DNA of 64,000 bases from positions 2,329 to 66,328 of IMG/VR virus record IMGVR_UViG_3300029188_000196; one strand, written 5' to 3'. The translations under genes were made by a program, and so were the position numbers. Shown piece by piece: positions 1 through 12,661 of the stretch (within the stretch, counting starts at the first letter, position 1; the number at the start of each line of letters is the position of its first letter). Source of the DNA: a virus. Below the pieces are notes generated by a model that was not told where the DNA came from, made no database searches, and saw only the letters and a list, made by a program, of their open reading frames with translations.

Positions 1-559
1 GTGAAATATGGCCAATTTCAGTAACTCAATTAGTGTGCAAAACAGGTTCTTTTTGGCAATGCTACGTCAATACGGTTTGTTGAGTAGACATTTGTTTTGT
101 ACTTTTGTTGCATATAAATAGTTAAATCGTGCAATTATATTTACATTTCGCTTCAACCGGGGTAGTCATTTTCTGAATCGAGTGATTATTCAGGGATTAT
201 GACCGTCCAAAGCCTCTCTTGAAAGAATGAAATTTGCATAAAAATAAGGCCTACCGACAGACGTCGATAGACCTTAGGCATGATAAAATCATTTATTTTG
301 AAATATTGCTCATAGCTGATTATAATCACCTATTTTTATCTTATAAGTAATTATAATCAGTTTTTCATTTTACTTTCCTACACACCACATTTTTTCTTTG
401 CAATGCTAAATTGTAACCAGAGTGGCACTTAGCTGTTCTCCTTCCCAACATTGCCCCTTAGTCTGTTCAGCTGCTATTGTTGCTTTACGACATACAGTGT
501 CTTCTACTCAACGTAGAGTAACCTTGGGACTTATAGCCTCGTCCTTTCTTTATCTGTTG

Positions 560-964
560 CTATAGAGTTCCTGATGCTCCAAATTCCTTTAGTGAGATTA
601 GGTTTCCTTTTTCATTTGCCGCAAGCGAAATAACAACAGCGTTTTTCTCTATATCATACCGCCCACTAAATTGATAGTCTTTTCCCGTAACAAGACCGTT
701 AGCATCCAAAAGTGACTGAACAAACCCCATTCCGTTGATTCTCATTTTGCATTGTCCATCAGTCAACAGCTTATCCGGAACCCGAAATGACATAGGGTGA
801 ACCGCAGCACACGGCGTAATCACTATGGATTTTCGATCTTTTCTCTGCAAAACGCAAATATAATCCGGGCTTCCAAGAATACGAATGATGTCCTTTCCAA
901 TATGTACTCTCCGACTTTCCGCTGGAATCGTCACCAATAAATTCATGATTCGTCCTGAATTCAT
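560..964 (-). CDS. Hypothetical small protein, possibly an AbrB/SpoVT-like DNA-binding fold
   Basis: 134-aa ORF. The N-terminal segment 'RRVHIGKDIIRILG' resembles the swapped-hairpin AbrB/MazE motif. No other recognisable motif. Confidence 0.3.
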   Translation of the reverse strand: MNSGRIMNLLVTIPAESRRVHIGKDIIRILGSPDYICVLQRKDRKSIVITPCAAVHPMSFRVPDKLLTDGQCKMRINGMGFVQSLLDANGLVTGKDYQFSGRYDIEKNAVVISLAANEKGNLISLKEFGASGTL

Positions 965-1785
965 GTCGGAGTTCCTCTCTCGACAGCTGTACTATCTGGT
1001 GGCTCCATATTCTCAGACTGTTCCTGCAAAACGGATAAAGAGGTTTCCTTAGAGGCTTCATCGGTCTGGAGTGTTGATTCTTTTGAAAGTTCATCCTTTT
1101 CCTGTTCAGGCTCATTCAATGCCACAGCCCCCTGATACCCGATAAAATCCTCAAACATGTTCATCTGATGAGCTGCAACATAATCATTATAAGATTTTCC
1201 GATACAATTCTTATAGGCATCCGGGAAGAATTTTATCTGCTTTTTCTTCGTTTCGCCAGTAACAGGGTCTGTATATTGCTGTGGTTTCGGTGTGAACATG
1301 ATGGCCTCTTCCAAGTCGAATAGCATACAGAGACCTTGATTTGAGTTAGCCACCCGTCCAAGCACTTTATAACGGCATTCTCTATTCCAGCTCATCATTT
1401 TATAGATTTTCTCTACAAATTCTAATGATACAATGTCCTTATTCACCCAACTTTCACCCTTTTGTCTGGCCCATTCAACAGAAGCACTGTCTTCTTCCGG
1501 GCACATAATCAATGCAAGTCGCTTCTTGTACGGATTCAAAATCGGGACTACATACTTAATTCCTTCAAAAAGTCGGATGCAGGCCATGTTAAATTTCATA
1601 ACGCCATATTTTATGCTCAATGCGGGTTTATTCAGCATAGAGAACTGTGTACGCGGTGGAAGTTCATAGCCATCGAAATTTTCGTACTCCAGTTCTCTTT
1701 TTTGTTCTTTCCGTATCTGCGCCAGTTCACGAATCAGCGTAATTTCCTGTGCACTCAGTTTCTGCTCCCGGCTTTTTTCTTCCAT
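961..1785 (-). CDS. Hypothetical protein
   Basis: 274-aa ORF translationally coupled to the downstream gene. Acidic N- and C-termini, no motif recognised. Confidence 0.35.
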   Translation of the reverse strand: MEEKSREQKLSAQEITLIRELAQIRKEQKRELEYENFDGYELPPRTQFSMLNKPALSIKYGVMKFNMACIRLFEGIKYVVPILNPYKKRLALIMCPEEDSASVEWARQKGESWVNKDIVSLEFVEKIYKMMSWNRECRYKVLGRVANSNQGLCMLFDLEEAIMFTPKPQQYTDPVTGETKKKQIKFFPDAYKNCIGKSYNDYVAAHQMNMFEDFIGYQGAVALNEPEQEKDELSKESTLQTDEASKETSLSVLQEQSENMEPPDSTAVERGTPT

Positions 1786-1799
1786 TCTACAAGTTCCTC

Positions 1800-3644
1800 C
1801 TACATAGACATCAAAAGAGCATCCAGTTCACGCTGTACCTCATTTTTGCTCGGAATTGCGCCAATCATGGGATTTTCTACGACCAGTCCATACTCCATTA
1901 CATCGCTGTTCATAATGCTTTGAATCCACTTGCTCCGATATAATCGACATCCCAGATTCATAGCGGAGTTCTCAGCCTTCTTATAATGATTTTTTCCAAT
2001 CAAAGTCTGAGATTCATCCAGTTCAAAAATCAAGAATTTCGTATTTTGCCGCCCACGAGAGATACCACGACACTGATAGCGACAGTCCTGTTTCCAGTTC
2101 ATTTCATCTAATATCGCACCCGCAAAAGCTCTAGATGAAAATCTATTGCAGATGTCATTTGCATTTTGCCAATGAATCGCCGTTGAAGAGTCATGACCGC
2201 TCTTTCGCAGAATTATGACCTGCAGGATTGGATGATATAGCAGTTCCACATATTCACAGTCGTCCAATCTGGTATGACAAGCCTTGCTAAAACGAATTTC
2301 ATTTTTAGCAATTGTAATAACTGGGCTACTATGGTTGATAAAGCAGGCGCTGGAAGCCGTCAGATATTCAGACTGATACATCGAATCTTGTTTTTTCCCG
2401 GCCCTCATATCAGCCATAGCATTTAATTCTACCACTTCTTCTGGCATATAGGCACTCAGACAAAGGCTGCGGATACTTTCATCGTTTATACCACTCCAGT
2501 TCGGATGAATGCCTACAAATCCTTTCAATGCTCCCTGTTTAATTACAACGATATCCTGTACCCCACACCTTTTGCTGCTGGATGCCACAAGATGTGCAGC
2601 TCGTGCAATCTCCGGTGAAACAATCGCTTCGTGATGTTCTGGGACATAAGCCGAGCATCGGTCGCCATTATTCTTCGTCACCTTCCCCAGCTTATAATCT
2701 ACCACGATGCTCTTCCGAGCTTCCAAATCACCCCAGCGGCGTTCGTTTTTCATGATGTTGGCTACCATCATGCCGTTCCACTTTTGCCTGCCTCGCAGGG
2801 TGCTGCGCTTCTTTTTCGTAAGGATCATTGCAATTTGGTCGTAGTCGTACCCTTGAATAAAGGCCAGAAAAATAAAACGTACTGTCTTTGCTTCTTCCGG
2901 CTCGATTACCAGCTGCCCATCCGTTGTATGCCGATATCCCATCAAATCAGCTACCGGATATTGGCCAGTCATAATACGCTGATCATACGAAAGAATCATG
3001 CGACGGCTCTTATTACCAGATTCCCAGTCTGCTAAAAGAGCCTGAACATCCAAGCTATACTGGCTGTCAGGATTAAGCGTGTAAATATTTTCAGTTTCAA
3101 AGTACACACCAATCGGATGAGCCGGATGCATAGTTTTCAGGGCAGCGATTTGTGTCATGCAATCCGAGAAATTTCGAGCAAAACGCGAAACACTGGCACA
3201 AACAACCAAGTCGATTTTTCGCTCTTTTGCATCCTGCATCATGCGCTTAAAAGCATCACGCTTTCTCAGTGATGTACCGGATTTTCCTTCATCACTGTAT
3301 ATATTCTGCAGTGTCCAGTTCTCGGTTTCTGCAATCTTTTTAGTGTAATAGAGAGTTTGATTTTCAATTGAAGAAATCTGCTCTTCGCTGGAAGTACTAA
3401 CACGGGTATAAACCGCCACACGTTTCAGATTACTGTCATAAATAGATGGCGTGGGTTTTGCCGGACGGAAATAGTCTTTTGCCGTTTTCTGGCAGTGGTC
3501 CGTCTGCTTATGAATTCTACCACGAATTTCCGCTTTTCGTCTTTCTGCTTCCGTATGTCGGCTCTGCCAGTCCGTTCCAAGTGGGAGCATCTCAGTTTGT
3601 CCTGCAGGAATATACTCTATGGCTTTTTGTCCTTCTACAATCAT
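1800..3644 (-). CDS. Large serine recombinase (integrase)
   Basis: Resolvase catalytic motif 'VAVYTRVSTSSEEQ...SVSRFARN' followed by a recombinase domain and a long C-terminal extension. 614 aa, with about 75 aa ahead of the catalytic domain. Confidence 0.9.
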   Translation of the reverse strand: MIVEGQKAIEYIPAGQTEMLPLGTDWQSRHTEAERRKAEIRGRIHKQTDHCQKTAKDYFRPAKPTPSIYDSNLKRVAVYTRVSTSSEEQISSIENQTLYYTKKIAETENWTLQNIYSDEGKSGTSLRKRDAFKRMMQDAKERKIDLVVCASVSRFARNFSDCMTQIAALKTMHPAHPIGVYFETENIYTLNPDSQYSLDVQALLADWESGNKSRRMILSYDQRIMTGQYPVADLMGYRHTTDGQLVIEPEEAKTVRFIFLAFIQGYDYDQIAMILTKKKRSTLRGRQKWNGMMVANIMKNERRWGDLEARKSIVVDYKLGKVTKNNGDRCSAYVPEHHEAIVSPEIARAAHLVASSSKRCGVQDIVVIKQGALKGFVGIHPNWSGINDESIRSLCLSAYMPEEVVELNAMADMRAGKKQDSMYQSEYLTASSACFINHSSPVITIAKNEIRFSKACHTRLDDCEYVELLYHPILQVIILRKSGHDSSTAIHWQNANDICNRFSSRAFAGAILDEMNWKQDCRYQCRGISRGRQNTKFLIFELDESQTLIGKNHYKKAENSAMNLGCRLYRSKWIQSIMNSDVMEYGLVVENPMIGAIPSKNEVQRELDALLMSM

Positions 3645-4132
3645 TTTTCTTCAACCTTTTCCATTTCATTTTCCAATCGTGCTCTCCAAGCAAGATAGTC
3701 TGCTTTACGGATTGCTGTGTATTTTTCGGCTAAAACTTTCAGACTCCGCCTCTGATCTTCCACATCCAAAATAGTATCGATTCGCTGATCATTATCGTCC
3801 GTAACAATGTCAATCCGCATTGGCAAGTCAAACAGATATTGCAATAAGAAACAAAATTCGCATGTATTGGCTGCAAGGTAGGCTCGTGTCTGCGAAGAAA
3901 TTAGATTGATTTTCCCCTTTTTGCAGTCACGGAGTAAATGTACCATCTCTGGACGTTTGAAGATTTCTTTATTGCCTGTAATGTCAATGTACACACCGAA
4001 CAGCTCTTTATCTGTATCATCTTTGAATTTTTCAGCATAGTAGGAACTATGATAGGCTACTACGGCATCTTTAGAGCGTTCCCATAGTTTTGCCAGTTTT
4101 ACATAGCCGCCGACCTTATATTTGCTGTCCAT
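3641..4132 (-). CDS. Resolvase-like domain protein, catalytically degenerate
   Basis: Aligns to a resolvase N-terminal domain ('GGYVKLAKL...KRPEMVHLLRDCKKGKINLISSQTRAYLAANTCEF'). The Y-A-R-V-S nucleophile motif is replaced by Y-V-K-L-A, so the catalytic Ser is absent. Its stop overlaps the recombinase start. Confidence 0.55.
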   Translation of the reverse strand: MDSKYKVGGYVKLAKLWERSKDAVVAYHSSYYAEKFKDDTDKELFGVYIDITGNKEIFKRPEMVHLLRDCKKGKINLISSQTRAYLAANTCEFCFLLQYLFDLPMRIDIVTDDNDQRIDTILDVEDQRRSLKVLAEKYTAIRKADYLAWRARLENEMEKVEEK

Positions 4133-5105
4133 TTATAGCACCTTCTTCCGGCTGAACACTCCAATACCATCTCCGTTTCTTCTGATAGCAATGAATGCCC
4201 ATTTCCGTTTTCGCCATCCGTGCAACTCGTTTGCTGATGCCCTCATTATCCAGACGGCAATAAATTTCATTTGCACTCATATCACCATTTGCAAGAAAAT
4301 GTTTGATCCAATAGGCCGCCTTCTGCTGCTCAGAGTCAAATTTAGGCTTATCATCTTTCTGCTGAAATTCATAGGTTTGTGGTTTGCATTCCAGCCACTG
4401 AAAGCCACTCTCGGCAGAAATGGAAAAGCGAATGTCTTCTGCTGTAGGAGCAAGGCTGTTTTTGATTTGGTGTACGATTCTTATATCGGAGTTTTCCGTA
4501 TCTCGTTCTACCTGCAGGACGCTCCGCGCAGCTGCCACAACATCAATACTTCCAAGGCTACGGTACAGTCCCTTGGAGCCTTCCTTTTTATTAAGGTGTC
4601 CGATTAGAACGATGGCGCAGTCGTAGCCAGTAGCCCACATTCCAAGGCGGCGCATAAGTTTTCGTGCCCTACCTGCGATTTGCAAATCCGAATCGCTACC
4701 GAGGTATGCTTGGATCGGGTCAATCACGACCAATCGCGGCCGGAATTCAACAATTGCCTGACGGATACGCTCATCATCCAAGGTAAGACCGTTGTATACT
4801 TCCTCATTAATGAAAGCTATCTTCCTGCAATCTGCTCCGCATCGTTCCAGACGGGGTTTTATTGTGTCCGAAGCGTCATCTTCGGAGCACTGATAAATCA
4901 CCTTTTGTGGTACACCTACTTTACAGCCGTCTGGGGTCTTTCCTCCTGTCGAAAGCTCTGCAATCAGATTCATCATCATAGTGGATTTTCCATCGCCAGG
5001 ATCTCCCTGCAATAATGTGATTTTCCCAATTGCAATAAACGGATACCATAACCATCGTACATCTGTTGACTGAACTTCGCTGTACAACGTCAGTAACTGT
5101 TCCAC
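4116..5105 (-). CDS. AAA_25 / RecA-like (KaiC/DnaB-like) ATPase with C-terminal HTH-like region
   Basis: Walker A 'GDPGDGKST', Walker B 'LVVIDPIQ', then 'IGHLNK'. Typical of RepA/primase-associated helicases on mobile elements. GTG start. Confidence 0.75.
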   Translation of the reverse strand: MEQLLTLYSEVQSTDVRWLWYPFIAIGKITLLQGDPGDGKSTMMMNLIAELSTGGKTPDGCKVGVPQKVIYQCSEDDASDTIKPRLERCGADCRKIAFINEEVYNGLTLDDERIRQAIVEFRPRLVVIDPIQAYLGSDSDLQIAGRARKLMRRLGMWATGYDCAIVLIGHLNKKEGSKGLYRSLGSIDVVAAARSVLQVERDTENSDIRIVHQIKNSLAPTAEDIRFSISAESGFQWLECKPQTYEFQQKDDKPKFDSEQQKAAYWIKHFLANGDMSANEIYCRLDNEGISKRVARMAKTEMGIHCYQKKRRWYWSVQPEEGAINGQQI

Positions 5106-5177
5106 GTCGTTCTCACCGCCTCATCCTTGCAACTTAACTTCACGCTTTTATTATACGCCTGTCAGATAATTTTTTCT

Positions 5178-5225
5178 GTGAAGTAACACTTCACATGTGC
5201 AAGGAATTGTGATGTAACACTTCAC
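5178..5225. promoter_or_regulatory. Pair of 17-bp palindromic operators in a divergent promoter region
   Basis: A perfect palindrome GTGAAGTaacACTTCAC at 5178-5194 and a near-copy GTGATGTAACACTTCAC at 5209-5225 lie 31 bp apart, between the minus-strand ATPase gene and the plus-strand XRE gene. Confidence 0.5.
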
Positions 5226-5372
5226 AAAATCGCCTCAGAATACATGACCGCTAGAGGTAGGGCTGTAATCTCTGAGCATTTTCTATCATCAAATGCCCAT
5301 TGCTTGTATACGCTTCCTGAAAAGCGAATAATTATATTGTCTTATGCGGGCATTTGAAAGGAAGTTTTACTT

Positions 5373-5717
5373 ATGTCCGTCAATTATTCCGCTTTAGGGA
5401 AACGTATTGGCTATTTCAGAATGCAGTGCGGTAACATCACCCAAGAAGCCTTAGCTTCTAAAATCAATCGCAGCCGTGAATTTTTGGCTAAAATTGAAAA
5501 AGGCACCGAACATCCAAGCATTGCCACGCTAGTCGATATTGCTGATGCCCTTTGCATTTCTGTTGATGATTTGTTGATTGATAGTCTTCACTATTCTGTT
5601 TCAACATCTAACTCCGAACTGCATCGTTTACTATTGGATTGCAATGAAACAGAGCAGGCCATAATCACCCGCATGGCAAAAGAGTTAAAGGCTACTCTTG
5701 TCAGCCTTGGAATTTAA
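5373..5717 (+). CDS. XRE-family HTH transcriptional regulator (Cro/CI-like)
   Basis: HTH motif 'ITQEALASKINRSREFLAKIEKG'. 114 aa, divergent from the recombinase operon. Confidence 0.9.
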   Translation: MSVNYSALGKRIGYFRMQCGNITQEALASKINRSREFLAKIEKGTEHPSIATLVDIADALCISVDDLLIDSLHYSVSTSNSELHRLLLDCNETEQAIITRMAKELKATLVSLGI

Positions 5718-5823
5718 CATTTTTTCGTAGCAAAGGTTAAAATAAAAAGGCTCGCATAAGCTGCAGACGCACCCTCGAATTCTCCTAGGTGCTGTCTGTG
5801 GTTTATGCGGCCATAGACAGCAA

Positions 5824-5876
5824 TAAAAAAAGCCCACCAACGAACCATGTAGCAATTACACAGTGCGTTAGTGGGC
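5824..5876 (-). terminator. Rho-independent terminator downstream of the AAA-ATPase gene
   Basis: On the minus strand, hairpin GCCCAC...GTGGGC followed by TTTTTTT. Confidence 0.6.
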
Positions 5877-5882
5877 ATGTGG

Positions 5883-7514
5883 TCAATCTTTCTCGTATTT
5901 TTCAATCAGGCATTGATGTTCTTTAGTGTCCTTGTCGTAATTAATTCCTACGAGTAGGATATCTCCAGTATAGCTCAGAATCGAAGACGGATACTTTTTG
6001 TCTTTTATCTGTTGCATGGCTGTCGCAGCATTTTTACTCCACTTCAATTCAACGACCATCGCTGGATATGATGAAATATACTCTGGCTTCGGTATGAAAA
6101 CAAAATCTGCAAAGCCTCGGCCAGTTGGCAGCTCCCGAATCGGTTTGAAATAATACTGCATTGCGCTCAAGTATGCGATTGCCAGTACACTGCTCAACGA
6201 ATTTTCGTTATGATACTGGATTACCGATACATATTCATTATGGATTTTCTCAATTTGAGCAGCGACTGTTATGCCATCCATGTCCAATGTTGCATCAAGT
6301 AGACGTTCTGAATCTCGCTGGAAAGACAGCATCTCATTCCACGCTCCACTTTCGACTGCTGCTGTGAGCTCCTGCCGAATTTCTTCATTGGGTACGAAAG
6401 CCGTCTTCAATTTTTGATTAAACCCAAGATATCCCAGATGAATCATATAGGTCAGCACATCGTCCCTACTTTTTATATTAACTGTATCATTTTTGAACGT
6501 CGCTGTGTTCACCTTGACCTCTGCACCAGAAAGCATCTCGATGATGGCCGTTTTTAGTCCATCGAAATCCATATTAATCAGTGGCACAATTGCATCATAG
6601 GAAGCAGTTTCTGACCAATAGCTTTTGAATTCTCCTCGCAGCATTACACTGACAACCGCTCTAGGATTATAGACTTGATAATCCTTCAGAAGATATCCGT
6701 CATACCACCGCTTCACCTCATCGAAATCCTGATGGTACTCCTCCGCCAGTTTCCGCACCTCATCTTCTGTAAATCCAATATATGGTGCTAGTCTGCTTGC
6801 ACTCAGCATTGTAAATTCATCAAAATTATTCAGTGCCGACTGAGTTTTTTCCTTCTTTATGGGAAGGATGCCTGTCAGATAAGCCAGTTGAATATACTTT
6901 GTTGGCTCTGTTCCTTTGAACATTCCTCTGAGGAAATTGATGTAATCTTCCTGTGCCTTCGTATTAGCAGCCTCGTCACGAATAAGAACATCCCATTCAT
7001 CAATAATGACGATGAACTTTTTTCCTGTTAGGGCATTGATTTGTGATAAAGCCTCTGGCAGCGACTTTGTTTCCTCTGGAAGCGTATCTGGATAGTACTC
7101 CTTAAGCTCTGCAATTGTCCTCTCAGAAATGTAAGGAACTACCTGTTCCGCTCCCCCCGCTGGTTCCATACACCATTGAATATCAAGATGAATTACGTCA
7201 TATTGATTTAAGTGCTTCTTAAAATCCGCGCTCTTGCTGATTTCCAAATCTGCGAACATCGCTTCTGAGTCGCAGCCTCTACTATAGTAAGCTGTGAGCA
7301 TATTCGCTGTAATAGACTTACCGAATCTTCTCGGACGGCTGTTGCAAATATAACCTTGCAGTGTATTTAAAACTCTATTTGTGTATTTAATGAGTCCGCT
7401 TTTGTCCACATAGATTTCAGAATTCAAAGCGACTTGGAACGCAGAATTGTCTGGATTCACAAACATTCCCATATCGTATCCCGTTCCTTTCCGTGACTGT
7501 TTGATACAAATCAC
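5883..7514 (-). CDS. AAA-ATPase-like (PF09820-type) plus PD-(D/E)XK (PDDEXK_9-type) family protein
   Basis: 'SRPRRFGKSITANMLTAYY' P-loop region typical of the 'predicted AAA-ATPase' family, with a C-terminal nuclease-like region. The likely true start is the internal ATG at 7472 ('MGMFVNPDN'), preceded by AAAGGAA. A TTGCTA-17-TAAAAT promoter sits at about 7528-7556 on the minus strand. Confidence 0.75.
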   Translation of the reverse strand: MICIKQSRKGTGYDMGMFVNPDNSAFQVALNSEIYVDKSGLIKYTNRVLNTLQGYICNSRPRRFGKSITANMLTAYYSRGCDSEAMFADLEISKSADFKKHLNQYDVIHLDIQWCMEPAGGAEQVVPYISERTIAELKEYYPDTLPEETKSLPEALSQINALTGKKFIVIIDEWDVLIRDEAANTKAQEDYINFLRGMFKGTEPTKYIQLAYLTGILPIKKEKTQSALNNFDEFTMLSASRLAPYIGFTEDEVRKLAEEYHQDFDEVKRWYDGYLLKDYQVYNPRAVVSVMLRGEFKSYWSETASYDAIVPLINMDFDGLKTAIIEMLSGAEVKVNTATFKNDTVNIKSRDDVLTYMIHLGYLGFNQKLKTAFVPNEEIRQELTAAVESGAWNEMLSFQRDSERLLDATLDMDGITVAAQIEKIHNEYVSVIQYHNENSLSSVLAIAYLSAMQYYFKPIRELPTGRGFADFVFIPKPEYISSYPAMVVELKWSKNAATAMQQIKDKKYPSSILSYTGDILLVGINYDKDTKEHQCLIEKYEKD

Positions 7515-7585
7515 CTATTGTACTTTGATTTTACCATTTAGAAGGACAAATAGCAAGTTGATATTCCCTCGCAGCACCACTCTTT

Positions 7586-7975
7586 TCAGTCTTTTCTCAA
7601 GAGGATATACACATCTTCGACAAAACTCATGAATTCCACACTGGCTCTCTCGACCATGTGCTTTCCATTTATACCTTTCAACTCTTCCATGACCTTTTCT
7701 GCCGCAACACCTCTCCGCTCTCCCACTTCTTGCATCGTACTCACCACCGCCTCATCGATGAAAGAAGCGTACTTTGCACCATCGATATGGCTTCGTACTG
7801 GCACAAGTTCGCCACTTTCAATGCGGAGCACGTTCGGCATATAGATTCGTTCAATCCTTGCCAGTGCTTCATCAGCTTCCATTTTACAAAGATACAGCTG
7901 CATGGCACTTACAGCCGCAACCTCCGATGCACAAACTCCATAGTTCTCCGATACGAGCTTTGAGATGTTATTCAT
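7586..7975 (-). CDS. Hypothetical protein at the prophage/host junction
   Basis: 129-aa ORF with an AGGAG RBS 8 nt upstream. It sits just downstream of the strong terminator that ends the recombinase operon. Confidence 0.5.
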   Translation of the reverse strand: MNNISKLVSENYGVCASEVAAVSAMQLYLCKMEADEALARIERIYMPNVLRIESGELVPVRSHIDGAKYASFIDEAVVSTMQEVGERRGVAAEKVMEELKGINGKHMVERASVEFMSFVEDVYILLRKD

Positions 7976-8061
7976 TTTGCTTTCTCCTATGTGTATTACT
8001 TGCTACCCACAACATATAACAAAATTCTGCACATAGCAATCCCTGAAAAAAAAATACCTAT

Positions 8062-8104
8062 AAACGAAAAAAGGCCCCGCCAGACTATTTTGTCCAGCGG
8101 GGTC
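8062..8104 (-). terminator. Strong rho-independent terminator ending the prophage late/integrase transcript
   Basis: On the minus strand, GACCCCGCTGG...CCAGCGGGGCC hairpin (6-bp GC stem) followed by TTTTTTCGTTTAT. Confidence 0.7.
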
Positions 8105-8146
8105 GTGATTGTTCACATTTTGCTTCTAGTCGAATCATCTTTTTTC

Positions 8147-10415
8147 TTACACAGCATCTTTACGCTCACGCTTTGCAGCCATCGTCAGGTATCGGCGGTA
8201 CTGAATGCTGAATCCATAAACCTTATACGGAGCATCCACATACTCAACCGTGCCATCCATATTGCACCGCTTGAAACCTCGGAAGCTGTTCAGCGTCCGG
8301 CGGTTTCCAACCGTAGTAAGGGTCACACCGAAGGTCGTCTTGAACTCGACCACATCTCCTTTGACCGTTTCCTTTTCAATGAAAGCACAGTAGATGCCCT
8401 TTTCAAAATGAAGCAGGTCGGGAGCCTCGGCAATCAGCTCCGGTGTAAGTTTCAGGCTACGCTTACGAGTACTCGTAGGGTTGCCATCTTCATCCCTATA
8501 TGCACTACTCTGAACATTCAGCCCATATACCTTCAGAGGCATACCTGCCGTGTTCTGTTCAGGAAGCTGTTTCAGGCAGTCGATGAAGACATCGAAGTTC
8601 TTCTTCATGTTTCCGAGTTCTCCCTGTTCGTTTTCCAGCATACTGCGCTCTTTTCGCAGGTCATCCATACGCTTCCGAATCTCATTTGCAAGCGTGTTAT
8701 AGGTTTCGACCACAGAACCTTCCTCGACATCGATGCTGTACATTCTCGTTCCAAGGTCACTGGCTGTCAGTCCATTGCGGATGTCCATTTCAAGGTCACC
8801 AATGGAAAGGTCACCGTTTGCAATGGCTTCTTTTAAATTCTCGTTCTGCTCCATCGCCGCCTCACGCATTGCAACCACCTGTTTACCGATGATTTCATTC
8901 AGTTTGACTTCCAATTCTTTCACCTGATCGTCCAGAGCTTCGATACGCTGAGCAGAAACTGCACTGTTTTTCACTTTCCGGTAAAACTTGTCGTAGGCAG
9001 CCTTAAACATCCGGACGATATCCGAACCATCACCTTTTGTCTCGTAGTCATACTTTAGTCGGTAGAGCATTTCCATGAAGCTCTGTTCCAAAGCGACCTC
9101 ATGGTAGAGTATGGTAGAGTTCGGAAGGACACCGCTCCTCGGCGGCTTCCCGTTCCGCATCTGTCATCCGCCCCAGTTTGCTGCGGCAGTATTTCTTCTG
9201 GTCAAGAGTTCCAGTCTTGGGTTCTTCCCCTTCCCGTACTCCGGCTTTCCTCTTACAACGCCAGACCGGGAATGCAAAAGTGTACTTCTCCAGATATTCA
9301 CCGCCGTCCTCACCTGTTGCCTGCAAACTCCGCTCATCCGTATAGCCAGATGCCACGTTCGTGTAGGTGAGGCGGAAGAATCCGGCACCGCACTCTTCTC
9401 CATCCGGCAAATGCGTTCCACAGACAAGGTTTACAAAGGGACGTTTCACAATGGTCTTCTTCTCTTTGGTCTTGATGTCTCCCCGGTTGGGTTTGTTGTA
9501 CATCATGGCCTGTACTTTATCCCAAGTCAGACGGTCGATGATTGCGACATGATGGTTTTCGATATAGTAGCGAGGTGCTTCACCACTGTTCTTTGAAGAC
9601 CGATGGGTTAGGAAGTCTTTTGTGATGGTCTTCTGCATCTCAATGTCGCCCACATACTTCTCATTCCGAAGAATGATCATAACGGAACCAGCTGCCCATT
9701 TCTTTCCGTTTACTGTCGGCCGCCCCATCTCATTCAATTCTGCCGCGATTTTAGTGGCGGACAGTCCCAGCAGATACCGCTCAAAGATGTAGCGGACGGT
9801 GGCCGCCTGATCGGAGTTGATGATCCATTCACCATCCGGACCCATATCGTAGCCAATCATGCGCTTCAGATTGATCTGCGGACTGCCGCGCTGGAACTTG
9901 CGCTGGAGTGCCCAGCGGATGTTGTCCGAAATGGAGCGGCTTTCGTCTTGCGCCAGAGCCGAAAGAATGGTCAAAATCAATTCACCAGTTGCATCCAGCG
10001 TATCGATATTCTCTTTTTCAAAGAAAACGCCCACCGGAGGATTGAGCTGTCGAAGCTCACGGATACAAGTTAGTGTATCAACCGTGTTACGGGCAAAACG
10101 GGAAATGGACTTCGATACGATATAATCGATTCTTCCTGCCTTGGCATCATCCATCATGCGGTTGAACTCCACGCGGTGCGCACGGCTCGTGCCGGACAAT
10201 GCTTCGTCCGCATAGATGCCAGCGAAACGCCAGCCCGGTTTGCTGGTGATGAAACTCGTATAAAAAGCTTTCTGGGTCGTATAGGAAGTCTGCTGACTTT
10301 CATCTCCCGTGGAAACACGGCAGTAGGCAGCCACACGGATGTTGTTCTGCATCTTCAACTGACCGCCATTTTGCACAGAGCGTTTGGTTGCCGGAATAAT
10401 AGAAACATTTGCCAT
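8147..10415 (-). pseudogene. Large serine recombinase disrupted by a frameshift (10-bp tandem duplication)
   Basis: An N-terminal ORF (9099..10415; 'VAAYCRVSTGDE...SKSISRFARN') and a C-terminal ORF (8147..9160; coiled-coil and C-terminal domain) sit in frames that differ by +1. Deleting one copy of ATGGTAGAGT at 9101-9120 restores a single reading frame of about 755 aa ('...CPSELYHEVALEQSF...'), matching the neighbouring intact paralog. Confidence 0.8.
9101..9120. repeat. Perfect 10-bp tandem duplication (ATGGTAGAGT x2) causing the recombinase frameshift
   Basis: Read directly from the sequence. Confidence 0.9.
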
Positions 10416-10429
10416 AGTGCTTTCTCCTC

Positions 10430-12661
10430 TCATTTTATAAACCGTTTCCGGTATGCGTTATCCCGCATGACCTGTCCATCATAGTAGCTGGCGGTATTGC
10501 GGAAGTCTTCAATATTGCTGTCCATCTCCACTTTTGTTCGAGTGTCATCGAACCAATGAACACTGTACTTCAGCGGAGAGTAAACCGTGATGGACAGGAT
10601 GAACGCTTTGCAGTGTTCCCCTGTCAATCCATTCAAGAATGCTACGGTTCCCTCTCGGCCCTTGGGAAGCTGTCTCATCCACTGCACCGCTTCTTCTCTG
10701 CGGTCGTAGTCATCTTCCAGCTCATCCCAGTAGTCTTCCAGATAATCGAGCTTGTCCTCCAGCTTCTGGGCTTCGGTCTCATCCTGCTCTATCCGTTTTC
10801 TCAACCGCTCGATTTCCTCTTTTCGCTCAGTCAGGGCCGCTTCATCTATCGTTTCATCTCCAAGCAAGTCCCGCCGGGTCTCCATCGCATCTTTCTGGCT
10901 TTGAAGAAGGCTCATTCTCTTATGGGCAGCTTCTGCGTCTTTCTGGAGTGCGATGATTTGCTTTTTGTAGAAACAACGGTCACGCTCCATGAAGTCAATC
11001 TTCTGCAGGTTTTCAAGCCGTGCCTGCATCTGAATCACAAAGTCATCGGCCTCATGAGTAAGAAAGTCGGTATTCTCTGCGTACCGTCCGCTCATAATGT
11101 CTGCCACGCTCACATCATCCCGAATGGGGGCGCTCGACAACTGGAAGCGTTCTATCACGGCCCTGCGGATAACACGGACAATCTGCTCTTCGTAGACACT
11201 TTCGGCATGGCAGATGCTCTTTCCATTGTTCTGCTTCGCCGAAGGGCAAAACCATATAGGATTCAGATTTCTATTTCTTACATTGAAAAATCGTCCGCAG
11301 CTTCCGCAGATAAGCCGTCCTGAAAAAGCCCACTGTGTTTTTTCCTCTCTCTTGTGCGAATCCGATTTTGCATTGACGATCTTTTGCACCTTTTCAAACA
11401 GTTCCCTGCTCACAATCGCTGGATGATGGTCTTTAATGTAGTACTGCTGAACTTCACCTTTGTTTTTCCGCACTTCATGCGACAGATAGTCAGCAGTATA
11501 GCTTTTCTGTACCAGAACATCTCCAGTATACCGTTCATTGCGAATCATCCCAGCAATCCGACCGTTTGTCCATCCGGTGTCAAGCTCGCTGTTAAGCTGA
11601 CCTTTCTTGGATTTGACCTTGCGCAACTTCTGTGCACTGCTCTCCGGAGCAGGAATGTGCTCACGGTTCAATTTCCTTGCGATGTCTGCAAACGAGAACC
11701 CTTCTGCGACCTCTTGGAAGATGCGCCGGATAACTACAGCTTCCTCCTTAACGATTTCAACTGCCTTATACTTGTAGCCGCTTTCGCTGGTAATCATCTC
11801 ACCATTGTAGCGGTATCCATAGATGTCAACATTCCGCACATCTCCACGCTTAAAGCGCATCTTATTGCCAAGGTTGATGTTGCCGGAGATGCTTCGGCTT
11901 TCCTCTTGCGCAATAGCCCCCAGTGTAGTAAGGATGAATTCACTGGTCGGGTCTGCTGTATCGAGATTTTCTTTCTCGAATAGAATCGTCACATTGTTTT
12001 CTCGAAGCAAATCCAGTGCCATCATAAAATCAGCCGTATTTCGGGCGAATCTCGAAATCGACTTGCAAATCACGCGGTCGATTTTCCCTGCCTTGCAATG
12101 CCGAAGCAGTCTGCGGAAGCCGGTACGCTTTTCACTGTTCGTGCCAGAGATACCATAGTCCGAATATACACCGATGGGATTCCACTCAGGGTTGGCTTCA
12201 ATCAGCTGGTTAAAGTACCGTTCCTGCGTTTCATAGGAGTTTTCCTGGTCAGATGAATCCGTTGAAACACGGATATAAGCGGCAACATTCAGCGTTCCAG
12301 TCTTCTGCTTCGTTGCACGGAAGCTCTCAGCAGAGATGAAATCACCCGGTTTTGCTTCATATACCAATTCCTGAGAGGGCTCATCACTCCTCTCAACCGG
12401 AATCGTAATGTCCTGCCGTACCACGGCGGCCTTCTTTGTGGTGACTGCTTGGTCGATGAACGCCTGCAATGCGGGGTCAACTTTCTTTTTTTGTTGAGTA
12501 GACTTGTCTTTCGTCTGATTTTTCTTGGGTGAAAAAAGAACCGCAGCGGAACCCAGTTCAGGCAGGTTCACAGCTGCGGTCTTGTTAGATGTCTTTGGCT
12601 GTACCGACTTTTCTTCAGTCATCTTCTGCAATTTTGCCAAGAAATCAGTTGTTGTACTCAT
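10430..12661 (-). CDS. Large serine recombinase (integrase) with about 125-aa N-terminal extension
   Basis: 'LNVAAYIRVSTDSSDQ...CKSISRFARNTADF' catalytic domain, recombinase domain, zinc ribbon 'CGSCGRFF', coiled coil. AAAGGAGAG RBS precedes the first ATG, so the Lys/Thr/Gln-rich extension is translated. Its stop overlaps the start of the next recombinase (ATGA). Confidence 0.9.
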   Translation of the reverse strand: MSTTTDFLAKLQKMTEEKSVQPKTSNKTAAVNLPELGSAAVLFSPKKNQTKDKSTQQKKKVDPALQAFIDQAVTTKKAAVVRQDITIPVERSDEPSQELVYEAKPGDFISAESFRATKQKTGTLNVAAYIRVSTDSSDQENSYETQERYFNQLIEANPEWNPIGVYSDYGISGTNSEKRTGFRRLLRHCKAGKIDRVICKSISRFARNTADFMMALDLLRENNVTILFEKENLDTADPTSEFILTTLGAIAQEESRSISGNINLGNKMRFKRGDVRNVDIYGYRYNGEMITSESGYKYKAVEIVKEEAVVIRRIFQEVAEGFSFADIARKLNREHIPAPESSAQKLRKVKSKKGQLNSELDTGWTNGRIAGMIRNERYTGDVLVQKSYTADYLSHEVRKNKGEVQQYYIKDHHPAIVSRELFEKVQKIVNAKSDSHKREEKTQWAFSGRLICGSCGRFFNVRNRNLNPIWFCPSAKQNNGKSICHAESVYEEQIVRVIRRAVIERFQLSSAPIRDDVSVADIMSGRYAENTDFLTHEADDFVIQMQARLENLQKIDFMERDRCFYKKQIIALQKDAEAAHKRMSLLQSQKDAMETRRDLLGDETIDEAALTERKEEIERLRKRIEQDETEAQKLEDKLDYLEDYWDELEDDYDRREEAVQWMRQLPKGREGTVAFLNGLTGEHCKAFILSITVYSPLKYSVHWFDDTRTKVEMDSNIEDFRNTASYYDGQVMRDNAYRKRFIK

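Follow-up and report, generated by a model that had tools for sequence, protein, structure and literature searches.

Why does a prophage that already has a pair of large serine recombinase (LSR) genes carry a third at its outer edge, packed together with the genes for an ATPase and a degenerate resolvase, and does this group belong to the prophage or is it a second mobile element lying beside it? The question is raised by a stretch of viral DNA of 64,000 nucleotides (IMG/VR record IMGVR_UViG_3300029188_000196, positions 2,329 to 66,328; hereafter the window, numbered from its first letter), the left end of which was described in a first-pass annotation as a serine-recombinase element adjacent to a prophage, and more specifically as an integrative mobilizable element (IME) or a satellite. 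We hold, with somewhat more confidence than doubt, that window ~1-5717 and the 281 bp that precede it belong to the prophage, as the outermost module of its multi-recombinase integration region, and are not a separate element. One of its products, p163, has the fold of a resolvase catalytic domain, has lost the catalytic residues of that domain and is under purifying selection.

The five-gene operon and its repressor

The module comprises a tightly packed operon of five genes on the minus strand (AAA_25, p163, LSR614, p274 and p134, in this order, window 560-5105), a divergent repressor gene and a non-coding terminal region:

4116-5105, minus strand: P-loop ATPase of the AAA_25 type (RepA/RadA/DnaB-like), with a GTG start
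3641-4132, minus strand: p163, 163 amino acids (aa), a dead resolvase-fold protein
1800-3644, minus strand: LSR614 (LSR-C), 614 aa, with an N-terminal extension, catalytic domain, Recombinase domain and X domain
961-1785, minus strand: p274, an X domain with an acidic, apparently disordered tail
560-964, minus strand: p134, which duplicates the C-terminal X domain of LSR614 as a separate protein
5373-5717, plus strand: XRE/RstR-like repressor (HTH_3 in Pfam), divergent from the operon
5177-5226: two 17-bp palindromes, GTGAAGT-GTT-AC(A/T)TCAC, 31 bp apart, in the XRE/AAA_25 intergenic region
1-559, minus strand: non-coding terminal region, which runs 281 bp past the window start to a recombination end
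318-358: two 10-bp palindromes, GATTATAAT(C/T), 31 bp apart, one of which carries the deletion junction of contig L017 (L numbers denote retrieved contigs and loci)

The junctions read from the sequence are close throughout: AAA_25 and p163 overlap by 17 nt, the stop codon of p163 and the start codon of LSR614 overlap as ATGA, as do those of p274 and p134, and LSR614 is followed by p274 after a gap of 14 nt with a GGAGGA Shine-Dalgarno sequence. All the genes named in the first-pass annotation are present, including a degenerate resolvase whose translation is coupled to that of the recombinase. The annotation had missed p274 and p134, likewise coupled members of the operon.

LSR614 is a large serine recombinase, as had been proposed (Pfam PF00239 Resolvase, E=6e-24; PF07508 Recombinase domain, E=8e-12, residues 249-350), and its catalytic motifs, YTRVST and SRFARN, are intact in the translation. 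It has neither zinc ribbon nor coiled coil, there being no PF13408 match in Pfam and no CxxC in residues 350-440. The best NCBIfam matches are to CcrB, CcrC and CcrA, but their scores of 87, 68 and 53 bits fall well short of the cut-offs (900, 900 and 700) and do not make LSR614 a Ccr orthologue. The predicted RecA-like ATPase was likewise confirmed, with matches to PF13481 (E=1.9e-22) and, as a RadA-like protein, to TIGR00416 (E=2e-10). Its translation has Walker A (GDPGDGKST) and Walker B (LVVID) motifs and a C-terminal extension of ~80 aa, and the N-terminus given by the GTG start is conserved in homologues from residue 1-8. Among the module proteins PADLOC gave no known anti-phage defence match, only generic helix-turn-helix hits and one weak P-loop hit, and the module has no Rfam match.

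The divergent XRE regulator was also found where it had been placed. Its gene lies inside a block of nucleotide homology common to relatives ~80% identical, at positions 2035-7230 of E1, by which we denote the segment shared between contexts (L001 6287-14414, corresponding to window 7846 down to 281 bp before the window start). The paired 17-bp intergenic palindromes are probably the operators of XRE. The prophage has its own CI/Cro-type switch ~4-4.5 kb past the right edge of the window, and the XRE gene at 5373 therefore encodes a second, module-specific repressor. Some of the ~80% relatives (L025, L081, L082, L089, L092, L103 and L107, at about 8050-8880) have a tandem duplication of ~200 bp in the XRE/AAA_25 intergenic region (E1 2589-2790).

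Part of the prophage or a second element

Between the module and the body of the prophage lie two further LSR genes and a short variable slot:

10430-12661, minus strand: LSR-A of the prophage, 743 aa, Resolvase, Recombinase and Zn_ribbon_recom domains, directly after the endolysin gene
8147-10433, minus strand: LSR-B of the prophage, frameshifted here into 444 and 337 aa
7586-7975, minus strand: 129-aa gene, function unassigned, 48% identical to its counterpart in the sister cassette E2
5883-7514, minus strand: AAA-ATPase_like and PDDEXK_9 gene, variable cargo between LSR-B and XRE

The prophage proper (window 12829-64000 and L130) encodes DNA polymerase A, SNF2, VapE and several methyltransferases, and its TerL is 76% identical to that of Clostridium phage NatCom_42228. 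DNA polymerase A, SNF2 and VapE are among the replication-type genes reported for Ca. Heliusvirales, in a paper that does not discuss integrases, and the prophage of the window looks like a relative of that group.

The relation of the module to this prophage was assessed by comparison of contigs. Of the contigs read, 23 carry the exact LSR-A gene of the prophage, and in every one of these it is followed by the cassette. The junction between cassette and prophage is constant, whereas the outer flank varies, with at least four contexts joined at one fixed position; prophage and cassette therefore move as one unit. Among the contigs compared in this lineage none showed a boundary between cassette and prophage. 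Where the cassette occurs without LSR-A and LSR-B, the contigs are microhomology deletion derivatives of the same prophage, in that their junction positions differ and the deletion partners lie, with 2-4 bp of microhomology, in its tape-measure and tail genes. A break at window 7846 was considered as an att site and rejected, the junctions falling at -105, -10, -10, +2 and +8 with 2-4 bp of microhomology to window 19528 and 23508; their clustering near 7846 is a query artefact, because the 84-aa product used as query exists only where that stretch is broken. Prophage remnants in which large microhomology deletions have removed the structural genes and left the recombinase module intact occur in many samples (L013, L019, L076, L144, L145).

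The arrangement extends well beyond this lineage. In the contig collection, 2031 indexed blocks contain the exact p163 protein and 3067 contain XRE; the exact-match loci retrieved are metagenome assemblies from ENA, at least some of them labelled human gut. With window 1-8200 as megablast query, the phage collection yielded no more than an unannotated fragment of 5 kb and the plasmids gave no match. The five-gene cassette, with its gene order unchanged, is present in practically every locus of sufficient length (46 genome loci and 52 viral contigs), in Clostridia, Negativicutes and Spirochaetes, including Faecalibacterium, Lawsonibacter, Lachnospiraceae, Oscillospiraceae, Dorea, Acetivibrio ethanolgignens, Anaerovibrio and Sphaerochaeta. 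Nearly all of the 52 viral contigs, and at least 16 of the 25 genome loci with enough upstream sequence, share the order of two or three LSR genes, none to three other genes, XRE and cassette, an order that holds down to 40-56% protein identity. The additional LSR genes (2-3) are co-oriented and lie 1-5 kb upstream of the cassette, and two genome loci that tblastn had missed have LSR triplets by Pfam. On the other side, 3' of p134, host genes or other islands start within 0.4-2 kb in diverse genomes (examples being DprA with aspartate kinase, a truncated sugar transferase and a tyrosine integrase), and the cassette is thus terminal.

Two related arrangements do without p163. The sister cassette E2 is otherwise built like the module of the window, i.e. 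from AAA_25 (75% aa identity), LSR610 (35%, with an X domain), p230 (X) and p158 (X). Between E1 and E2 the nucleotide identity is ~74-79% in LSR-B, the 129-aa gene, the XRE flank and AAA_25, which suggests that these four segments diverged together. Complete Ca. Heliusvirales phage genomes have a core of XRE, LSR-C, X and X beside an LSR pair and endolysin, with neither AAA_25 nor p163. This core (e.g. PV036446.1, PV036411.1) resembles the module of the window in its homologous repressor (34-37% identity), X-domain recombinase (33-43%) and two X-domain proteins, but is convergent with the LSR pair, not co-oriented; its genes are annotated as hypothetical proteins only.

E2, as a unit of the 129-aa gene, PDDEXK_2, XRE, AAA_25, LSR610, p230 and p158, was seen behind a related LSR pair of 786 and 766 aa (L012, L017, L018, L020, at about 2800-8900), frequently with remnants of the window's module in tandem, and near host PGM or GroES loci. 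The slot between LSR-B and XRE varies in content, with a PDDEXK_9 gene in the window, PDDEXK_2 in E2, and a divergent PDDEXK_9 or, in many cases, nothing in relatives, and window 5883-7975 may be a cargo or defence slot.

The outer end of the module has been located precisely. E1 ends in ...GTTGAGTAGAGCATGAA (in its longer form ...AACAGCTGTTGAGTAGAGCATGAA), followed across the junction by TG; at least four unrelated flanks meet it at this position, to within 2 bp. The flanks have only TG in common, and attP, attB and the other prophage end were not recovered. Junction of unrelated flanks at one position implies that this is a genuine recombination end, with little similarity between targets beyond TG. 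The non-coding stretch leading up to it measures ~0.85 kb (window 1-559 and the off-window part; L001 13574-14414) and contains, besides the GATTATAAT(C/T) palindromes, five copies of a GTTGAGT(A) repeat, where ~0.05 would be expected by chance for a 7-mer. Two of these are at window 79-85 and 506-512, and the other three are off the window. The terminal region is 93% identical to the end of E2, the recombinases of the two cassettes being only 35% identical; by this identity the region tracks AAA_25 (75% aa, E1 vs E2) and not the LSR. The repeats are common to E2 and the window's module and absent from distant relatives.

A secondary junction was observed at E1 7771, inside one GTTGAGT repeat (L011, L019, L078). 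At the GroES-proximal site (L001 14410-14520, just off the window), the element end supplies the ATG of a 36-aa open reading frame (ORF; ...AKAAEEAKKIEAEAVLKKLLASGVSADEILEKLK), which appears to be what is left of the 3' part of a disrupted gene; a search for the intact form of that gene did not find it.

In view of its repressor, recombinase and replication-type ATPase, all of its own, the module might be taken for an autonomous small element, an IME or phage satellite beside or inside the prophage, which LSR614 would excise and AAA_25 replicate, which would hitchhike with the phage and for which p163 would serve as a directionality factor. Its G+C is below that of the phage, and among relatives there are homology blocks of 5.4-6.6 kb, both flanks of which differ (L062/L064, L031/L034, L044/L047). 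The cassette is kept in prophage remnants without any structural genes, neighbouring LSRs are missing from L039 and L044, and L017 lacks exactly the operon. We nevertheless consider this explanation rather unlikely. Within the lineage some part of the phage was always seen to the left of the cassette, the phage-side boundary consists of scattered microhomology junctions with no fixed site, and the core sits inside complete phage genomes. The shared blocks run from XRE to p134 or from AAA_25 to p134 and have their edges at the ribosome-binding site of the next gene, much as in ordinary phage mosaicism. Searches of the nine ORFs with Pfam, NCBIfam and PHROGs found no relaxase or Mob family, oriT protein, terS, packaging gene or capsid-redirecting gene. 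The relaxase of an IME is thus missing, and satellites of the type of phage-inducible chromosomal islands (PICIs) or PICI-like elements (PLEs) are not matched either, given the lack of packaging and capsid genes and of a fixed phage-side boundary and the constant linkage to the prophage.

The case of L017 merits separate description. In this contig (L017 9981-13261) window 357-5214 is absent, and the sequences on either side meet in a TTA that is central both to one of the intergenic palindromes and to one of the GATTATAATC palindromes, the members of both pairs being 31 bp apart. The operon could have excised on its own, or this could be a chance deletion. Exact-pattern scans of the JGI metagenomes and IMG/VR did not find the junction of the predicted 4.86-kb cassette circle, ...AAATGAAAAACTGA-TTA-CATCACAATTCC..., nor was the L017-type empty junction, ...TTTTGTGAAGTG-TTA-TAATCACTTATAAG..., found elsewhere; overall, the scans for element ends, circle junction, L017-type junction and L013-type empty site matched at most one contig in IMG/VR and none in the JGI metagenomes.

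We conclude that the module is a modular, exchangeable cassette and not an autonomous satellite or IME, and that it is most likely the terminal recombination and replication module of the prophage. Of the first-pass description, what stands is a distinct, self-contained cassette with its own XRE and its own RepA/RadA-like ATPase, a distinctness also seen in its lower G+C; its separateness does not, the independent-element reading failing because the boundaries show the cassette to be part of the same prophage. Several observations nonetheless weigh against our assignment of the module to the prophage. The G+C of the module is 0.41-0.44, compared with 0.50-0.53 for the prophage, and the cassette, with or without XRE, is exchangeable between backbones, with sharp homology boundaries between relatives. 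In the genome loci L039 and L044 the 7-9 kb upstream are free of LSR genes, L017 has lost precisely the five genes, and the prophage's other end and its att sites were not recovered. Finally, E2 and the Heliusvirales phages do without p163, which is hence dispensable for the basic reaction.

An improbable alternative is that LSR614 is a resolvase-type enzyme of an AAA_25 replicon, responsible for multimer resolution or for deletion or inversion of DNA within the phage, with p274, p134 and p163 supplying the accessory architecture of a synaptosome of the res type, assembled on the palindromes and GTTGAGT repeats. Such a role would suit an enzyme without the zinc-ribbon/coiled-coil domain that imposes attP x attB selectivity, encoded in an operon flanked by repeat arrays and paired palindromes; the L017 deletion extends from one palindromic site to another, and the terminal repeats of E1 and E2 co-vary with AAA_25 and not with the LSR. 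The precise outer end on several unrelated flanks, however, points to intermolecular integration there, the repeats were not found in distant relatives, and the internal deletion has a single example.

Two side observations concern further recombinases. LSR-B is split just after ...RCPSELYH (overlap region 9099-9160); it is intact, at 752 aa, in L071, L072, L139 and L141, and the broken allele occurs in many samples. One sample has a Tn4451-like unit, a 557-aa serine recombinase with DUF4368 together with TnpW, in the early region of the phage after a 218-aa gene (L133 15989-17913).

A dead resolvase and free-standing X domains

The first-pass annotation described p163 as a degenerate resolvase with its nucleophilic serine replaced, and family-level and structural comparisons bear this out. 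The single sequence has no match to Pfam Resolvase and gives only weak matches in NCBIfam and PHROGs (CcrB N-terminus, E=0.006; phrog_95, E=2e-4), but PF00239 is matched by 18 of 23 family members (best E=1.9e-6), so that the product of 3641-4132 does have the support of profile searches as a resolvase. A homologue search found 473 relatives, mostly of 160-170 aa, and the family alignment has 24 invariant columns and the motif Y-V-K-L-A-K-L-W-E. The family profile matches PDB chain 3g13_A, the solved N-terminal domain of an LSR from a C. difficile conjugative transposon, with E=2.4e-11, YCRVS being aligned with YVKLA and SRFARN with (R/K)AYLAAN; by this alignment the nucleophilic serine and both arginines of the DRxxR region are replaced in p163. 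The residues equivalent to Ser10, Arg8, Arg68 and Arg71 are Ala14, Lys12, Tyr85 and Ala88, replacements that are family-wide, with conservation of Ala14 at 90% or more.

The AlphaFold2 (AF2) model of p163 (predicted local distance difference test score, pLDDT, 91.9) has an alternating beta/alpha core, a long alpha-E-like helix (residues 124-141), one further helix and no DNA-binding domain. Its top Foldseek matches are serine-recombinase catalytic domains, i.e. 3g13, TP901-1 Int (3bvp) and LSR chains from cryo-EM. In profile-profile comparisons with hhalign p163 matched the N-terminal domains of LSRs of the same loci with 95-99% probability, and it is closer to those of LSR-A and LSR-B than to that of LSR614. 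The gene is under strong purifying selection, with dN/dS of 0.05-0.09 (pN ~0.10, pS ~0.65, against relatives ~80% identical).

On these sequence comparisons p163 is a functional pseudo-enzyme and not a decaying fragment. That it might be the functionless remnant of a truncated recombinase gene, as the failure of the single sequence against the Pfam Resolvase model and the loss of catalytic residues could suggest, is a reading with almost nothing left to it, effectively refuted by the 473 homologues at a conserved ~160 aa with 24 invariant columns, the low dN/dS, the position and coupling kept in distant taxa and the confidently predicted fold. A -1 frameshift fusion of p163 with LSR614, at A-AAA-ATG-A, was also considered and is unlikely, because 30-150 nt separate the two genes in distant relatives.

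The second duplicated part of the recombinase is the X domain, which spans residues 392-586 of LSR614 and recurs as free-standing p274 and p134. With hhalign, p274 aligns with residues 392-586 of LSR614 (98.4%, E=5e-15), p134 with residues 436-559 (94.9%) and p134 with p274 (95.5%). Single p274 and p134 sequences gave nothing useful against Pfam, NCBIfam, PHROGs or PADLOC. The AF2 model of p134 (pLDDT 83.5) has an internally duplicated beta-beta-alpha-beta-beta topology, with no confident relative in the PDB. p274 is kept downstream of the LSR in about all loci. The X domain shared by LSR614, p274 and p134, taken with the fold of p163, means that the operon encodes, besides its ATPase and the enzyme, two X domains and one dead catalytic domain as proteins of their own.

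Possible control of LSR614 and comparison with known systems

The composition of the operon suggests how it might work. The XRE repressor, on the paired palindromes, would keep the operon off. LSR614 would perform strand exchange at the nearby element end (...GTTGAGTAGAGCATGAA against TG), for which it is the best candidate because it is catalytically competent by its motifs and nearest to that end; it is possibly a low-specificity, transposase-like integrase, since only TG is common to the four targets. AAA_25 would serve as initiator-helicase in replication of the excised DNA, with the repeat-rich terminal 0.85 kb as its site of action. p163, which is predicted to be unable to cleave or bind DNA alone and keeps the fold and an alpha-E-type helix, would most likely heteromerise with the LSR614 catalytic domain through the dimer/tetramer interface. 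Its mixed oligomers with LSR614, or with LSR-A and LSR-B, would gate or bias synapsis and catalysis, a form of control that would replace the one by coiled coil and recombination directionality factor (RDF) absent from LSR614. p274 and p134 may occupy or bridge DNA sites or protein surfaces used by the X domain of LSR614. The first-pass annotation had proposed for p163 the part of a directionality factor, a regulatory subunit or a DNA-binding decoy, any of which it may play. The sequence data establish the gene anatomy and homologies, show that p163 has lost its catalytic residues and is under purifying selection, and show that the cassette has a conserved gene order, lies terminally and travels with the prophage; we infer all of these protein-protein and protein-DNA interactions, the identity of the phage-integrating recombinase and the replication step. 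As a non-catalytic partner or regulator of LSR614, p163 would be an accessory and not a core subunit, because E2 and the Heliusvirales phages lack it.

More broadly, and tentatively, LSR614 and its relatives may form a new class of LSR system, in which the zinc ribbon/coiled coil has been swapped for an undescribed domain and control is exerted by non-catalytic copies of the recombinase's own domains instead of by an RDF, with the p163 pseudo-resolvase entering or blocking the catalytic tetramer, the two X proteins competing or cooperating at DNA sites, and the whole coupled to AAA_25. We regard this as a possibility, and not yet as the probable state of affairs.

The established precedents for LSR control are phage LSR/RDF pairs, such as phiC31/gp3, Bxb1/gp47, TP901-1 and SprA/SprB of SPbeta, in which the target of the RDF is the zinc ribbon/coiled coil. 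RDFs are defined by what they do, binding the integrase and switching it from attP x attB to attL x attR, and form no sequence family with which p163, p274 or p134 could be compared. LSR614 resembles these recombinases in its catalytic and Recombinase domains, its position at a prophage end and the expectation of a small co-encoded control protein, but lacks the zinc ribbon or coiled coil; we know of no described RDF that is a resolvase-fold paralogue. A partial parallel is provided by shortened or non-catalytic regulatory derivatives of transposases, including Tn5 Inh, IS911 OrfA and the P-element KP repressor, which belong to DDE transposases and usually come from the same gene as the enzyme. 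Like these, p163 is part of a recombinase, is co-encoded with one and would be expected to give mixed, inactive or altered oligomers; unlike them, it has a gene of its own, which diverged long ago, and its fold is that of serine recombinases.

In gene order the module recalls the staphylococcal cassette chromosome (SCC) elements, which have an initiator-helicase operon directly upstream of the LSR genes and a putative origin adjoining, and Staphylococcus aureus pathogenicity islands likewise have an initiator-helicase and an origin (PMC7581432). The ccr complex of SCC (SCCmec; Cch/Cch2, CcrAB or CcrC) shares with the window a helicase/ATPase operon followed by an LSR and small conserved ORFs. 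Cch is MCM-like, however, and the AAA_25 protein of the window is not Cch; no dead resolvase or X-domain paralogues are described for the ccr complex, and SCC is an rlmH-targeted island, whereas the cassette of the window has a Clostridia prophage context. Multiplicity of recombinases is known from streptococcal integrative and conjugative elements (ICEs), which have triplets of serine integrases (external, middle and internal) at one end (Ambroset et al. 2016, PMC4701971); other coding sequences sometimes lie between triplet and target, and the function of the multiplicity was given as unknown (PMC4701971). The window likewise has three co-oriented LSR genes at one element end (LSR-A, the frameshifted LSR-B and LSR614). 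It differs in that the external recombinase is 2-4 genes apart from the other two and has a different C-terminal domain, in that an ATPase and three domain paralogues accompany this recombinase, and in that the carrier is a phage. In the literature we found no description of a serine recombinase lacking its catalytic serine, of AAA_25 with an LSR, or of a resolvase-fold pseudo-enzyme or X-domain paralogues with an LSR.

The results bear on how serine recombinases are governed and on how prophages are annotated. Large serine recombinases are major tools of genome engineering, and directionality control by coiled coil and RDF is the central mechanistic question of the field; here a very abundant gut-phage recombinase is found without the usual control domain, amid conserved non-catalytic paralogues of its own domains. 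For annotation, the hypothetical proteins beside such prophage integrases form one module, and prophage borders should take them in. If the paralogues are indeed regulatory subunits, they would constitute a new mode of serine recombinase control and would offer a testable reason for the presence of several serine recombinase genes in Clostridial phages and ICEs.

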